DNA of 64,000 nucleotides. Source: a virus. Its lineage: Duplodnaviria; Caudoviricetes. This document shows positions 23,718-28,901 of the stretch, one piece after another; positions within the stretch are counted from its first letter, which is position 1; each line of letters starts with the position of its first letter. Location: positions 12,252-76,251 of the IMG/VR virus record IMGVR_UViG_3300011989_000011. The stretch is one strand, 5' to 3'. The position numbers were made by a program, and so were the translations under genes. Below the pieces are notes generated by a model. It was not told the origin of the DNA. It saw only the letters and a program-made list of their open reading frames with translations, and made no database searches.

Positions 23718-24119
23718 ATGAAAGTTTACACAAGTTATTTCGCAAACGGCAAGAAGTTGCATGAAGCCGGAATCATGATGATCGGCATTGCACTTTTCCC
23801 ACCGAAATGGTTTTATGGGGTGTCGTTGCAGCAAGTAGCTCCTACCAATTCAATCCTTCACGAGGATACGGAAGAAAGGTACGTTGAGCGGTTTAAGAAT
23901 GAGGTCTTGGCAAAGGTTGACCCCAAAGAGTTCATTGAAAACGTGATGACATTCAGCAAGGGCAAAGATGTTGCTCTATGCTGCTTTGAAAAGCCGGGTG
24001 ATTTCTGCCATAGGCATTTGGTTGCCGATTGGCTGAATGAAAAGTTAGGCTTGGGGGTCGAGGAATTTGGTGTTAAGGTTTCGAAGAATCCTCATTACAC
24101 CGAAGGAAGCCTATTTTAA
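23718..24119 (+). CDS. DUF488-family protein
   Basis: MKVYTSYF, LAPT-like VAPT, ALCCFEKPGDFCHRHLVADWL. Confidence 0.75.
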   Translation: MKVYTSYFANGKKLHEAGIMMIGIALFPPKWFYGVSLQQVAPTNSILHEDTEERYVERFKNEVLAKVDPKEFIENVMTFSKGKDVALCCFEKPGDFCHRHLVADWLNEKLGLGVEEFGVKVSKNPHYTEGSLF

Positions 24120-24186
24120 GCTTATTACGATTCCACATAAATGGCAAAGCGGAAAGACGCTTGACAGAAGGACAGACTTCTTCAAT

Positions 24187-24258
24187 GCGTGTGTGGTCTA
24201 TCGGTTAGGACGCTGCACTTCTAGTACGGAAAGATAGGTTCGACTCCTTTCACACGCT
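24187..24258 (+). tRNA. Atypical tRNA: Glu-type body with UCU anticodon
   Basis: Acceptor GCGTGTG/CACACGC; D arm GTCT-ATCGGTTA-GGAC; loop CTTCTAG; 4-nt variable region; T loop TTCGACT; one mismatch each in the anticodon and T stems; no CCA. Confidence 0.7.
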
Positions 24259-24265
24259 CTAATTT

Positions 24266-24338
24266 GCGTGGATAGCTCAGTTAGTAGAGCGGTGTTCCTC
24301 CAGAACGCAGGTCGTTGGTGCGGGTCCAACTCCACGCT
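24266..24338 (+). tRNA. Atypical tRNA-Gly(UCC)
   Basis: Acceptor GCGTGGA/TCCACGC with U73; D stem GCTC/GAGC; loop CCTCCAG; T stem GTTGG/CCAAC; T loop TGCGGGT is non-canonical. Confidence 0.75.
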
Positions 24339-24431
24339 CATGAGCTCAATATGATACGATTAAAAGATTAGAACGGGTTATCTGAAAGACGTTTGAGAGG
24401 CGTGTAATGTAAGAGACCTGTTCTTTATTAT

Positions 24432-24550
24432 CTCCGAGTTAGTTCAAAGCGCTATGCTCGCAATCGGTAACACGAGGGTCGGTAGCAGAGGTGTGGTAGA
24501 ATAACCCCAACACGTGAGGGGCGATGGTGGTTCGAATCCCCATTCGGAGG
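24432..24550 (+). ncRNA. tRNA-like element with a ~47-nt insertion in the D loop
   Basis: CTCCGAG/TTCGGAG stem; GTTC..GGTA-GAAT D arm split by a hairpin; GG-TTCGAAT-CC T loop; irregular anticodon arm. Confidence 0.4.
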
Positions 24551-24560
24551 CTATTAAGGA

Positions 24561-25286
24561 ATGTTGCCAATGATAGATGTTTTTAGTCCCGATTGCTTGT
24601 TTCCGACAGACAACAATTTGGAGATACCCGAATTGAGGTCGGATATGCAAGCTGAGTTCTGCGAGATACCTTTTGTGTGTTTCGGAGAAACGGCAAGGAC
24701 ATATCAGATGAAAGGCACGGGAACACTCCATTTCTACACTGATGATTATAGGTTCAATAGTCTGTACGACCATCCCGATAAGATATTGCGGATGGACCCG
24801 TCAAACATCGTTGAGCCTAATTACAGCGTTTTCACTGACACACCTATCGCATTTGGCTTGCAAGCTATCTACAGAAAACGTTGGATAGCGAGGATGATGC
24901 AAGAACATGGTATAAGAGTCTTCGTTGATCTGAATGTCGCTCCTAAGTATTACCAAGTCAATCTGTACGGAGTGCCACAAGGTTGGCGCAGTTTCTGCAC
25001 GAGAGGTTCTGAAGACAGAATGAGCCAACTTGACAACGAGTTCAACCTTGCAAAAATGCGTAGGGGCGGTGATGATATCTTATTCGTTTGCTATGGTGGT
25101 GGCGAGAAATGTCGGGAATGGTGCCAAGTTCATCATGCCGTATATGTCAATCCTCTCATCAACTACAAGAATAGTATTAAGCAGAAGAAAGAACTCTATA
25201 GGCAAGGTGTTTTCTTCTTTCAAGATGATATACCCGTAAAGACTGTAGAAAAGAAACAAGTTTACGACTATGCAGACCGACTTTGA
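24561..25286 (+). CDS. DUF4417-family protein
   Basis: HFYTDDYRF, VEPNYSVFTD, RWIARMMQEHGIRVFVDL. Confidence 0.7.
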   Translation: MLPMIDVFSPDCLFPTDNNLEIPELRSDMQAEFCEIPFVCFGETARTYQMKGTGTLHFYTDDYRFNSLYDHPDKILRMDPSNIVEPNYSVFTDTPIAFGLQAIYRKRWIARMMQEHGIRVFVDLNVAPKYYQVNLYGVPQGWRSFCTRGSEDRMSQLDNEFNLAKMRRGGDDILFVCYGGGEKCREWCQVHHAVYVNPLINYKNSIKQKKELYRQGVFFFQDDIPVKTVEKKQVYDYADRL

Positions 25287-27339
25287 ACGTACTTTTGGAA
25301 TTGAGATAGAAATGTGCAATGTAGACAGAGGGAAGATTTCTCTGCCTAATGGCTATTCGTGGTCTAAAGACGAAAGTATATTCAATACGGATGGCAAATC
25401 AAGCAAACATTTTGGTGGAGAGATAAATACTCCTCCACTCCACTTATGTCAGAGAGATAGGAAAGACTTGCGTGACATCTATTCAGACTTGAAAGACAAC
25501 GGAGGAAAAATAAAATGGAGCATTGATACCCATGTTCACATCTATGCAGGTGACCTTACGTTGGATCAGTTGAAGAATATCTTCTATCTTCTTTATTGGG
25601 ATTACAAATTTGTCAAGAGGTATTGCCATATTGCCGATTGGGATGAAATGGTCTTTAACGCTCAGCCACTTCCAACGGAAAACAAATATGATTTGGTAAA
25701 GAGAGCTGCTTCGTTATTTGATTTGGAGCATGCTTTTACCAATCAATCCAAGAAGAGTTATCTCAGATTAGCAATCAATATAGCTTCTTATTTTGTAAGG
25801 AAGACTATAGAGTTCAGATGCTTCCATGCTACAGATAATTTTGAACTTGTTGAGAATTGTGTAATAGCTTCATATAGAATGTTCAACTTTGCAGTTACTC
25901 ATACCGAAGACGAAATTAAATCCATATCTTCTTATGATGAATTTTGCGCAAAGTTAAAGCTACATAGAGAAACGCCTCCAACTCTCACTCCGTTGATTTA
26001 TCAAGGCAACCCATATAGTAGCATAGAGACGTTTATGACGAACTCTCTTCCCTACAACTCTAAGCAAGCATCATTGCTATACGAAGCTATCCAAAAGAAT
26101 AAGCATACGGATATATGCGTTGTCAATGGTTTCATGTATTATTACGAGCTATTCCTATTGGATAAGATAAATGTGTCTATCTATTGCCAAGACGCTTATT
26201 GTTATCTGCTCTATCTGATAGCCAACGGAAAAGTTTGCCTTACATACAAGGATCGCCTTGAATGGTTGGAGGATTACAATGATAAATCGGTTAAGAGCCA
26301 GCTTGCCCTTGCTCTGTATGCTTCAAGCCTACAGAAGTTTCTTATGAGCAAGAGTTCTCGAAACGATGCAATCATAGAATCGCTTAAAATCAAGGCAAAA
26401 GAGTCTATTGAGAAGATAAAGATATCGAATGATAGACTTCTTCGATTGCTCACCACATGCGAGTTTAAGGTTGGGACCTTGCAAGATGCTATCAAAGACA
26501 AGCAGGTCATATTTTTCAACTACGGAGAAGATAAGAAGCAGAAGCGCACATTCAAACTCATCCAAGAGTGCAGTGATTTGGATTTGAACTTTGACCTAAA
26601 GCGTAATGATTATTACGACTTAGTAGAGAGCCTTCCGCAATCATCTTACTTCTACTATTTCAGCAATAGTCCGTTTCTGAGCAATATGCACAAGCTCGCT
26701 ATGATAAAATCATCGAATGGCGATAGGCGTTCTGCAGGCCGTTTCCTCTATTGCAATAAGCCCACACCCGTCAATGATGTCTGCACATCATACAAGGAGT
26801 CGTTTGTCGATGTCAACGAGATAGTTCCGCCGGATGATTTGGTTATTGACGACCCTAAAAAATTGAAGATTGCCAAATGCAATTCAAGCTATCTCTATTG
26901 CTTGCAGAAGAAGTATATCAAGAAAGTTGATATGGTAAGCAGGTGCACCTATGCTTTCGTTGTCATGTATGACAAGTACACACTCGGAGGTTTTGGATTC
27001 ACCCTACCTCAGCATAAAGGCTATGATCTGTTTCAGTTGACAGATTTCTGCACCAACAATGAGATACCACGTCTGAGTAAACTGATATTGGTTTGCATCC
27101 AATCGGTAAGGGTTCAGATGGAGTTAAGCAGACGTATGCACAAACTATGTGAGAAGGTTATTTCATGTGCCTATACCCATAAGCCTGTAAGCATGAAGTA
27201 CAGAGGTATCTACAAGAAAGTGAAGGAACACTGCACATCATCTTACCTTGCCTACGAAGGTGTTCTTGGGCAGTATGCAGATAACAAGGCTATCATTGCT
27301 AAATATCAAAATCTTTGTAAGAATGGGAACAGAAGATAG
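25270..27339 (+). CDS. Fusion protein: amidoligase (COOH-NH2 ligase), degenerate methyltransferase-like region, Mom-like GNAT
   Basis: N-terminal RTFGIEIEM, GEINTPPL, THVH, TIEFRCFHAT (Amidoligase_2 pattern); C-terminal YAFVVMYD..LGGFGF..LTDF..PRLSKL..AYTHKPVSMKYRG. Confidence 0.65.
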   Translation: MQTDFERTFGIEIEMCNVDRGKISLPNGYSWSKDESIFNTDGKSSKHFGGEINTPPLHLCQRDRKDLRDIYSDLKDNGGKIKWSIDTHVHIYAGDLTLDQLKNIFYLLYWDYKFVKRYCHIADWDEMVFNAQPLPTENKYDLVKRAASLFDLEHAFTNQSKKSYLRLAINIASYFVRKTIEFRCFHATDNFELVENCVIASYRMFNFAVTHTEDEIKSISSYDEFCAKLKLHRETPPTLTPLIYQGNPYSSIETFMTNSLPYNSKQASLLYEAIQKNKHTDICVVNGFMYYYELFLLDKINVSIYCQDAYCYLLYLIANGKVCLTYKDRLEWLEDYNDKSVKSQLALALYASSLQKFLMSKSSRNDAIIESLKIKAKESIEKIKISNDRLLRLLTTCEFKVGTLQDAIKDKQVIFFNYGEDKKQKRTFKLIQECSDLDLNFDLKRNDYYDLVESLPQSSYFYYFSNSPFLSNMHKLAMIKSSNGDRRSAGRFLYCNKPTPVNDVCTSYKESFVDVNEIVPPDDLVIDDPKKLKIAKCNSSYLYCLQKKYIKKVDMVSRCTYAFVVMYDKYTLGGFGFTLPQHKGYDLFQLTDFCTNNEIPRLSKLILVCIQSVRVQMELSRRMHKLCEKVISCAYTHKPVSMKYRGIYKKVKEHCTSSYLAYEGVLGQYADNKAIIAKYQNLCKNGNRR

Positions 27340-28051
27340 ATGGAAATATGCCAAGGTCGATATTAATCTTATCGACAATGCAGAGTTGAACGCCAACGAA
27401 ATGACTGATGAAGATTACGCTCAGTTGCGTGACAACATCAGTAAGTCCGGCCTTAGCAGTGTGCCTGCTTGCTATAAGAAAGCTAATGGTCGCTATGTGA
27501 TGATTAGCGGTCACCATAGGTTGGCAGCGTGCAAGGAACTCCACTACAAGACTATTGGCATTTTGTGGTGTTGGGAGAGTGAAATGACCCAAGACGAGAT
27601 TATCGCTACGCAGCTATCCCATAACTCGCTTCACGGCCATGACAATCAGAGCATCTTGAAGAAGTTGTTTGAGCAAATCCATTCAGTAGACTACAAGCAG
27701 TTTGCCCACGTAAACATGGATGAGATAAAACCTGTCAGCACGGATGGTATTAGTGTCTTCGCCATGAAAGAGAATTTCGTCTTCACGGTTATCCTCTACC
27801 CCGATTCATTCGAGAGTTTGGATGAGTTGTTTGGAGACATCAGAGAGCAAGCAAAGAAAAGCGATGCCCTTATCCTTGCAAGTGAGGAGGACAATGAAAA
27901 GAACCTCCTTAAACTGCAAACGGAGATAGGCAAGGAGTATGATATCAAATCTCCAAGCATCACATTCGCCAAGTTGTTGGAGTTGGCAAAGGAACGTTTA
28001 ATCGAATTAAGAGACAAGAAAGATGATTTGGATAATAATGACAAAAAGTGA
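27323..28051 (+). CDS. ParB/Srx-like domain protein
   Basis: NAELNANEM..LRDNISKSG..YVMISGHHRLAACKELH. Confidence 0.85.
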   Translation: MGTEDRWKYAKVDINLIDNAELNANEMTDEDYAQLRDNISKSGLSSVPACYKKANGRYVMISGHHRLAACKELHYKTIGILWCWESEMTQDEIIATQLSHNSLHGHDNQSILKKLFEQIHSVDYKQFAHVNMDEIKPVSTDGISVFAMKENFVFTVILYPDSFESLDELFGDIREQAKKSDALILASEEDNEKNLLKLQTEIGKEYDIKSPSITFAKLLELAKERLIELRDKKDDLDNNDKK

Positions 28052-28901
28052 TAAGGAGACTTACATCCTCCCTCACAAAGCAATACAGATAACAGAAGCT
28101 CTTGGGAAGAATAATCTGAAAGTCGTTTCAGTAAATAATGGTAACGAGGTTTATATGCTCGGTATCAAGAAAGATGATATTGTTATCTCAGAGACACGTA
28201 ACGAAGGGGTCAATTTTGCTATTACTGAGATTTGCCGAGCTAACACTGTAGAAAGTAAAGAGACTATTCGCTTAACTAAGGATAAAGAGGCTGTTAAGCC
28301 TCTGCTTGCTGATGCTAACATACCTTATCCAAAATCTTATAGATACGATGAAGCAGAGGAAGGACATTGTTATTTCGTCAAGCCGAAGTTTGGTGAAGAT
28401 AGCAATATGATAGATGAAAGTTCGATCTGCCATAATGCTCGAGAAGTCCGCATAAAGTATCGTAAGTTAGTATCAGCAGGATGTAAGCCTATAATAGAAG
28501 ACTACATTTACGGAGACGATTATACTGTAGCAGTAGCCAAATGCAATGATTTGTTATGCTTTCCTATCAAGGTAAATCTTCTGCATAGCTCCATAATGAC
28601 ACATAAGGCCAAGTGGGATGAAGATGAGTTCTGCGAAGTTCCAGATTGTGGCGAGTTCGAAGAATTGAAACGATTAACTGCAAAGGCTTTCGATGCCGTT
28701 GGATGTAAACATTACATGAGGATAGATTTTCGCAAGGGTAATGATGGTAAGTTCTATCTGATAGACCTCAATCTGTTCCCCGGTCTTGGTCCAACAGACC
28801 ATTTTGCAAAGTGTTTAGCTCTCAATGGCGATTTGAGCTACAAGCAGATATTGAATACTATTATATACACTACGGGAGGAAATCTATATGGGTTGCGTTA
28901 A
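28038..28901 (+). CDS. ATP-grasp ligase (D-Ala-D-Ala ligase/RimK-like)
   Basis: TKDKEAVK..IPYP, FVKPKFGEDS, IIEDYI.G.DYTV, RIDFR, LIDLNLFPGL. Confidence 0.88.
   Translation: MTKSDKETYILPHKAIQITEALGKNNLKVVSVNNGNEVYMLGIKKDDIVISETRNEGVNFAITEICRANTVESKETIRLTKDKEAVKPLLADANIPYPKSYRYDEAEEGHCYFVKPKFGEDSNMIDESSICHNAREVRIKYRKLVSAGCKPIIEDYIYGDDYTVAVAKCNDLLCFPIKVNLLHSSIMTHKAKWDEDEFCEVPDCGEFEELKRLTAKAFDAVGCKHYMRIDFRKGNDGKFYLIDLNLFPGLGPTDHFAKCLALNGDLSYKQILNTIIYTTGGNLYGLR

Follow-up and report, generated by a model that had tools for sequence, protein, structure and literature searches.

A phage tRNA-Gly(UCC) with altered anticodon and T loops, encoded upstream of a putative DNA-modifying GNAT gene, as a probable dedicated glycine donor

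To our knowledge, the dedicated non-proteogenic tRNAs described so far belong essentially to staphylococcal cell-wall synthesis, and tRNA-dependent DNA modification was first shown in 2026, for Mom with host tRNA only; we know of no documented aminoacyl donor for a DNA-modifying GNAT other than Mom's glycyl-tRNA. The staphylococcal non-proteogenic tRNAGly(UCC) species have UGC or UGU in place of UUC in the T loop, form 6 bp anticodon stems with 5 nt loops, bind neither EF-Tu nor the ribosome and are reserved for Fem transferases (PMC7826273). Mom is a GNAT that moves glycine from Gly-tRNAGly to adenine N6 in dsDNA; it uses all E. coli tRNAGly isoacceptors, with no private tRNA needed (PMC13219725). 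We found no paper in the literature on a phage-encoded tRNAGly dedicated to DNA modification. The gene described here, a tRNA-Gly(UCC) of a gut Prevotella-type phage, is a candidate for that role: comparison with its relatives makes it probable that it is non-proteogenic and serves as a dedicated glycine donor for the phage's own DNA-modification GNAT.

The tRNA gene and its operon

The DNA derives from a 76,251-base IMG/VR virus record (IMGVR_UViG_3300011989_000011) estimated to be 98 % complete, of which the window, i.e. the whole stretch analysed (64,000 nt), forms the greater part. The phage is a Bacteroidales phage, and near-identical phage DNA was present in sequencing runs from bovine gut, pig gut and wastewater. 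Only two tRNA genes were found in the whole 76 kb phage, side by side, and all genes around them, from DUF488-N3a through ATP-grasp, lie on the + strand. The features of the locus, in window coordinates, are as follows.

23718–24119, + strand: DUF488-N3a gene, directly upstream of the tRNA pair, a position conserved in relatives
24187–24258, + strand: paralogous tRNA, called as tRNA-Arg(UCU) (ARAGORN/Rfam and comparison with relatives)
24266–24338, + strand: focal non-canonical tRNA-Gly(UCC), 73 nt (ARAGORN, Rfam, manual parse and family conservation)
24561–25286, + strand: DUF4417 gene (PHROG 940, 'nuclease'), between the tRNAs and the fusion gene
25270–27339, + strand: Amidoligase_2/DAM-like-phage2/GNAT-phage-like fusion gene, 689 aa
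Domains of the fusion protein: Amidoligase_2, aa 33–194; DAM-like-phage2, aa 237–415; GNAT-phage-like, aa 530–681 (nt 26857–27312)
28023–28901, + strand: ATP-grasp (D-Ala-D-Ala-ligase-like) gene, same operon

ARAGORN called the focal gene as tRNA-Gly(tcc) at 24266–24339, and the Rfam tRNA model (RF00005) matched it with 47.4 bits (E 1.3e-8; gathering score 29). This score came from a short-stretch search; the gene was absent from a whole-window Rfam run at the gathering threshold with default filters, and tRNAs with a UGC T loop can be lost to such filters. Manual parsing resolved an acceptor stem GCGUGGA/UCCACGC, a D arm with stem GCUC/GAGC and loop AGUUAGUA (A18 G19), an anticodon stem GUGUU/AACGC with one U-G pair, an anticodon loop CCUCCAG (C32 C33 U34 C35 C36 A37 G38), a T stem GUUGG/CCAAC (G49-C65, U50-A64, U51-A63) and a T loop UGCGGGU (U54 G55 C56 G57 G58), ending in U73 with CCA not encoded. 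The first-pass annotation, made from the letters alone, had stated that all four stems pair, that G1-C72, C2-G71, U73 and C35/C36 are kept, and that A18, G55, G58, C33 and U51-A63 depart from the canonical tRNA. The stems were confirmed by the parse and by the Rfam match, which contained no non-standard pair, and every named position reads as it had claimed. G3-C70, the Watson–Crick-capable C32-G38 and U50-A64 are further features that it did not list.

Bacterial tRNA-Gly is recognized by GlyRS through G1-C72, C2-G71, G3-C70, U73, C35 and C36, and the focal tRNA has the complete set. A decoding-competent elongator has U33 and a 7 nt loop with a non-Watson–Crick 32-38 combination; the focal tRNA has C33, and its C32-G38 could shrink the loop to 5 nt. 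A58, required for the U54-A58 reverse-Hoogsteen pair of the T loop, is missing and replaced by G58. The elbow carries A18/G55 instead of G18/U55, with G19 and C56 retained, and the 18-55 contact is probably preserved in another form.

In the neighbouring tRNA called as Arg(UCU), the acceptor is of Gly type (G1-C72, C2-G71, G3-C70, U73), the T loop is canonical and the T stem is weak (A49-U65, U50.U64, A51-U63); the counterparts of this tRNA in most relatives have an A51.C63 mismatch. Its only difference from the corresponding tRNA of the 99 %-identical relative (L072) is C36>U at 24222, and this position reads C in two other strains (runs X9 and X7, i.e. the strain of a bovine-gut RNA-library contig and a DNA run). 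Because these strains and L072 all have C at 24222, the 'tRNA-Arg(UCU)' is, to judge from its sequence, a tRNA-Gly(UCC) paralogue with a strain-specific one-base change in the anticodon. The focal tRNA sequence was identical in other strains with differing flanks. Glycine codon usage of the phage was unremarkable (GGU 34 %, GGC 31 %, GGA 25 %, GGG 10 %).

An 851 nt contig from a bovine-gut RNA (metatranscriptome) library spans 23719–24569, covering the DUF488 gene, both tRNAs and the spacer behind them, and ends just beyond the DUF4417 start codon (24561). The contig is compatible with a common transcript, and DNA carry-over is possible; contigs of this kind cannot reveal RNA ends, CCA addition or charging. 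The DUF4417 gene is optional, being missing in L010-type loci and encoding 241 aa here versus 355 aa in L012-type loci. Within the spacer, a 120 nt stretch (24433–24553) with a T-loop-like motif (GGTTCGAATCC) and complementary acceptor-like ends was considered as a further tRNA and rejected, given that neither ARAGORN nor Rfam called it; its fold was no better than that of shuffles (z −0.24). Since DUF4417 is shorter here than in L012-type relatives, this stretch may be the remnant of a longer 5′ part of that gene.

Conservation in viral relatives and linkage in bacterial genomes

Scanning viral contigs with the fusion protein identified 80 loci with homologues 60–68 % identical, one of them 99 %, to which the window was added to give 81. 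A homologous tRNA-Gly with the UGC T loop was located 30–1250 nt upstream of the fusion gene on the same strand in 72 of the 81 loci, and at least one tRNA-Gly of any kind (one or two) was called upstream on that strand by ARAGORN in 77 of 81, the window counted. The homologues from the 72 loci comprised 24–25 distinct sequences. An alignment of homologous phage tRNAs had been proposed in the first-pass annotation, which read the changes as selection rather than random decay, and the alignment supports that reading. Across 24 distinct homologues, 97.8 % of the cells of the cloverleaf were paired and nine pairs had changed on both sides; none of 500 shuffles matched this pairing and no slid register came near it. 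Because the paired cells and compensatory changes exceed what shuffles give, the structure is under selection and not a product of chance or decay.

The identity set was held within the family and loop positions 33 and 34 drifted. G1-C2-G3, U73, C35, A37 and U54-G55-C56 were invariant, and C36 was present in 22 of 23 members. Position 34 was A (17) or U (6), the anticodons alternating between ACC and UCC; position 33 was U, A, G or C, and ARAGORN read the anticodon loops of two members as 6 nt. Positions 32 and 38 formed a Watson–Crick combination in 21/23 members versus approximately 23 % of control tRNAs, and G58 was present in 19 of 25 family sequences versus 1/435 control phage tRNAs. G-C at 51-63 was carried by 26/27 ordinary phage tRNA-Gly versus 4/60 GNAT-linked ones (Fisher 7e-17, a value that, like the other Fisher value given below, overstates independence as the compared sequences are phylogenetically related). 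These four were 1/42 tRNA-Gly from viral loci and 3/18 from genome loci, and the remaining GNAT-linked tRNAs had A-U, G-U or a mismatch in this place. The 51-63 pair is reported to set EF-Tu affinity and specificity (Sanderson & Uhlenbeck 2007, as cited in PMC7826273). By these comparisons, the family is set apart by G58, by its degenerate anticodon loop (C33, a 32-38 pair, no constraint on position 34) and by a 51-63 pair other than G-C. Synthetase determinants are kept while decoding geometry drifts.

The elbow does not belong among these features. The first-pass annotation had taken A18 and G55 as a rewiring that helps the tRNA to avoid translation, a claim that failed on wider comparison. 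A pattern requiring A18 and G55 had matches in at least 118 viral contigs (L084–L201), approximately 70 of which, many from large phages, carried unrelated tRNAs (Phe, Thr, Met, Lys, Ile and others); these tRNAs had normal anticodon loops and encoded CCA, and in large phages they made up whole decoder sets. Counting, for all identities, only those tRNAs of these loci that had not been selected by the pattern, a GG D loop occurred with a UUC T loop in 270 cases and AG with UGC in 66, with nine mixed (Fisher 1.5e-59, with the same caveat on relatedness). On these counts, A18/G55 apparently stands in for G18/U55 as a compensated pair and does so in many ordinary phage decoders, and because 18 and 55 covary there, A18/G55 alone is no sign of a non-ribosomal role. 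We found no description of this covariation in the literature. In six further cases from these viral contigs A19 (D loop ..GA..) was accompanied by U56 (T loop UUU), and in 11 a GG D loop was combined with a UCC T loop. A search of four host-type genomes for A18/G55-type tRNAs returned only chance-level non-tRNA matches, a result of little weight given that the pattern misses the 9 nt D loops of the prophage tRNAs themselves.

Four of the viral loci (L004, L005, L020 and L045) carried Asn, Lys, Met, Ser or Arg tRNAs without any tRNA-Gly, and the site is for this reason also a general tRNA island. In the sublineage comprising L004, L005, L009, L020 and L044–L046 (about 2300–2900), tRNA-Asn, -Lys, -Ile, -Ser and -Arg occupied the site together with an initiator-like tRNA-Met (C1.A72), a Rossmann-type gene (MKVAVIGTGNVG...) replaced DUF4417, and isolated T-arm-like fragments were seen. 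Close homologues also occur in cultured hosts, namely Prevotella vespertina A2879 (L203) and Prevotella sp. KH2C16 (L202).

A profile scan for the GNAT domain across bacterial genomes, limited to one genome per species, yielded a further 80 loci, whose hosts included Prevotella, Alistipes, Muribaculaceae, Capnocytophaga, Dysgonomonas and Bacillaceae as well as Chloroflexota, Planctomycetota, Acidobacteriota and Proteobacteria. All 19 tRNAs that ARAGORN called within 5 kb of the GNAT were tRNA-Gly and lay on the GNAT strand, against a background of 6.2 % Gly among 439 control phage tRNAs; no tRNA of another identity occurred within 5 kb in the 80 loci. Many of these tRNAs lacked U33 or had odd loops (UAACCAU, CAUCCAG, GGUCCAC and the 6 nt AAACCA). 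A covariance model built from the family recovered 12 more degenerate relatives in the genome loci, and a strict structural scan (GCG..., 7 bp acceptor, 5 bp T stem with 7 nt loop, ...CGC-U) found 25 matches, all of them on the strand of the GNAT, compared with three in shuffled sequence. In total, 33 of the 80 loci had a tRNA or tRNA-like gene of Gly type within 5 kb, in every case on the strand of the GNAT, and no tRNA-like gene was found within that distance in the other 47. The GlyRS identity set, including C35/C36, was retained in the distant GNAT-linked tRNA-like genes.

The distant carriers encode DAM-like-phage1 plus GNAT-phage-like proteins of approximately 440–460 aa without an amidoligase, which points to the GNAT module as the constant partner of the tRNAs. 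Mini tRNA-Gly-like genes of 62–71 nt adjoin DAM-like-phage1+GNAT genes in Alphaproteobacteria/Acetobacteraceae (L241, L242, L249, L258) and Planctomycetota (L231, L237, L252); the alphaproteobacterial forms are 62–64 nt long and have no D arm. The mini forms retain the GCG(G/C)...CGC-U acceptor, their T loop reads GGUGCAGUUCC or is otherwise non-canonical, and several have anticodon loops of 3–5 nt that still contain CC(A). Two distant homologues (P0040 and P0021) used as queries had no match in viral contigs. We also considered the linked tRNAs as prophage attachment sites and rejected this; they lie within operons, midway along complete viral genomes, they immediately precede the GNAT gene on its own strand, and their loops are unlike those of any host decoder.

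The GNAT enzyme and the proposed donor role

The C-terminal domain of the fusion protein matched PF22559 (GNAT-phage-like) with 136.8–140.4 bits at a cut-off of 27, and all 30 aligned relatives matched the same family. The first-pass annotation had called this GNAT Mom-like, which does not hold by sequence. The Mom profile PF25680 matched Mu Mom and had no match to the domain here, E values from BLASTP of the domain against Mu Mom were no better than 6, and the hhalign probability was 0.2 %; neither the fusion protein nor the GNAT profile matched PDB sequences. The AlphaFold model of the enzyme (pLDDT 91.5) has a clear predicted GNAT fold, for which VIA-align placed Mom (8bv8_A) first (Z 10.9, rmsd 3.1 Å over 135 residues), followed by CoA-using and generic GNATs at Z 10.2–9.5, and Foldseek ranked Mom 11th. 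With no detectable sequence relation and a structural top place tied with generic GNATs, membership of the Mom family is not supported; going by the model, the enzyme plausibly works like Mom. No tRNA was found near Mu-like Mom in 43 of 44 loci, the exception being one four-tRNA cluster, in a narrow sample whose members are all 85–99 % identical to Mu.

The proposal that the focal tRNA is a dedicated glycyl donor for the adjoining GNAT gains strong comparative support from the linkage and conservation described above, and probably stands even though two parts of the first-pass reasoning, the elbow and the Mom family, fell away. Under this proposal, the focal tRNA would be transcribed together with the DUF488 gene and its paralogue and then matured, with CCA added by the host because none is encoded, and would be charged by host GlyRS via G1-C72, C2-G71, G3-C70, U73, C35 and C36. 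The absence of U33 and an anticodon loop able to close to 5 nt via C32-G38 would exclude it from translation, T-stem A-U pairs where EF-Tu reads 51-63 would let it avoid EF-Tu, and G58 would abolish the U54-A58 pair of the T loop. The free Gly-tRNA would then be used by the GNAT-phage-like domain of the fusion protein, which would place glycine onto phage DNA, probably on adenine as with Mom, and the two ATP-dependent ligases (amidoligase and ATP-grasp) may extend the DNA-borne glycine. Gly-tRNA that escapes EF-Tu is open to attack by D-aminoacyl-tRNA deacylase (DTD) (PMC4880308), although U73 lessens this risk (PMC6097841). Against the donor reading, the donor could instead be an acyl-CoA, which is conceivable because the enzyme has no detectable sequence relation to Mom and its structural match to Mom is tied with those to CoA-dependent GNATs. 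Also counting against it are the ability of Mom to work without a private tRNA, the four related loci that lack tRNA-Gly, the 47 genome loci with no tRNA-like gene nearby and the expected exposure to DTD.

With less assurance, and only a little beyond even chances, we favour the broader view that the focal gene is one member of a broad class of non-decoding glycyl-carrier RNAs of viruses and prophages, which would supply a private Gly-tRNA pool to DNA-modifying enzymes. The proposed class would span full cloverleaves through to 62–64 nt forms without a D arm, and would have travelled with DAM-like-GNAT enzymes across Bacteroidota, Bacillota, Chloroflexota, Planctomycetota, Acidobacteriota and Proteobacteria. 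At lower odds, a Met, Asn, Ser or Lys tRNA at the site may mark sublineages that install amino acids other than glycine.

Alternative readings and comparison with known systems

One alternative, which we consider unlikely, casts the tRNA as a countermeasure to host defences aimed at tRNAGly, such as Gly-tRNAGly-acetylating GNAT toxins or toxSAS FaRel2; it would act as a decoy that soaks up the attack or as a resistant replacement for the damaged host tRNA. Defences of this type exist and read the acceptor end, toxSAS FaRel2 reading the tRNAGly acceptor stem (PMC11559606, PMC9177977, PMC7470980), phage-borne tRNAs are known countermeasures (PMC12409363), and the acceptor stem and U73 are the strictly conserved part of the focal tRNA. 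A non-decoding tRNA, however, could not replace host tRNAGly in translation, while a pure acceptor-stem sponge would have no need of C35, C36 and A37, which are nevertheless conserved. Nor does this alternative predict same-strand linkage to DAM-like+GNAT genes in many phyla.

It is also improbable that the gene is an ordinary decoder that boosts the host tRNA-Gly pool for GGA/GGG and adjoins the GNAT gene only as part of a general tRNA island. tRNAs are common in phages, entire sets of phage decoders that look normal have the A18/G55 elbow, GGA makes up a quarter of the phage's glycine codons as given above, and in a few relatives the site does contain Asn, Lys, Met, Ser or Arg tRNAs. Such a decoder would nonetheless have C33 for the near-universal U33 and a loop that C32-G38 can close, a G58 that is all but unique against the controls, and would have lost the G51-C63 of ordinary phage tRNA-Gly. 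Its homologues vary between ACC and UCC, at position 33 and in loop length while C35, C36 and A37 stay, its distant GNAT-linked relatives include forms without a D arm or with 3–5 nt anticodon loops, and Gly is the only identity among the tRNAs of the 80 genome loci.

We give a similarly small probability to roles other than that of a donor, in which the tRNA-like RNA would serve the GNAT protein or operon as substrate, scaffold or regulator. For example, the GNAT might acylate it, the DAM-like domain might use it as guide or cofactor, or it might direct processing of the operon transcript. Linkage alone is silent on the direction of the chemistry, some GNATs act on tRNA (TmcA and GNAT toxins; PMC13219725), and the minimal D-arm-less forms resemble structured cofactor RNAs. 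Set against this is the full GlyRS set, including C35/C36 in an otherwise free loop, which is held across phyla and is most simply explained by a need for glycylation. A decaying, functionless pseudogene is hardly credible: universally conserved positions are altered (U33, A58, G18, U55), yet the stems are intact with nine compensated pairs in the 24 distinct homologues, U54, G55, C56, C35 and A37 do not vary, other strains with different flanks carry an identical sequence, and in distant phyla, too, tRNAs of this kind adjoin the same domain.

Should the donor reading be correct, the phage glycine-carrier tRNA would connect non-proteogenic tRNAs with tRNA-dependent DNA modification, and phages would partition aminoacyl-tRNA between protein synthesis and genome protection. 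A private pool kept apart from EF-Tu and the ribosome would mark tRNA-dependent DNA aminoacylation well beyond Mom, and a Gly-type tRNA-like gene with a PF22559 neighbour would become a genomic marker of tRNA-dependent DNA hypermodification in many phyla. Comparison along the series from cloverleaf to mini-tRNA would reveal which parts are needed by GlyRS and by the transferase, and the idea is directly testable in the two cultured Prevotella hosts with close homologues.

Among the systems to which this locus can be compared, ordinary phage decoder tRNAs share with the focal tRNA a phage-borne cloverleaf, the A18/G55 pair and the D-arm type. They keep U33 (about 90 % or more), A58 (434/435) and a mostly non-Watson–Crick 32-38, and ordinary phage tRNA-Gly keeps G51-C63 (26/27), whereas the focal tRNA and its family do not. 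Mu Mom (PF25680, PDB 8bv8) is likewise a phage GNAT-fold enzyme in a DNA-modification context, and differs in being a single domain that uses host tRNAs, whereas the GNAT of this phage forms part of a fusion with DAM-like and amidoligase domains and is accompanied by the phage's own tRNAs.

The tRNA itself is most like S. aureus NP1–3 and S. epidermidis tRNAGly Ia and Ib, the donors for FmhB/FemA/FemB (PMC7826273), which are also Gly paralogues with a UCC anticodon. The likeness extends to UGC for UUC in the T loop (no pseudouridine 55), a possible 6 bp anticodon stem with 5 nt loop, and a T stem that is weak at the EF-Tu contact, with an A-U type 51-63 pair (U51-A63 and U50-A64 in the focal tRNA). 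The staphylococcal tRNAs serve a tRNA-dependent aminoacyl transferase off the ribosome, a role that we infer for the focal tRNA together with exclusion from EF-Tu and the ribosome. In contrast to them, the focal tRNA is virus-encoded, lies within the operon of its presumed transferase and has A18 G19 where the staphylococcal tRNAs have pyrimidines, as well as C33 and G58; the presumed acceptor is DNA instead of peptidoglycan, and the presumed transferase is a single GNAT domain fused to a DAM-like domain instead of a Fem-type enzyme. As host (here a Bacteroidales phage) and context differ, we assume that the likeness between the phage tRNA and the staphylococcal non-proteogenic tRNAGly arose by convergence.
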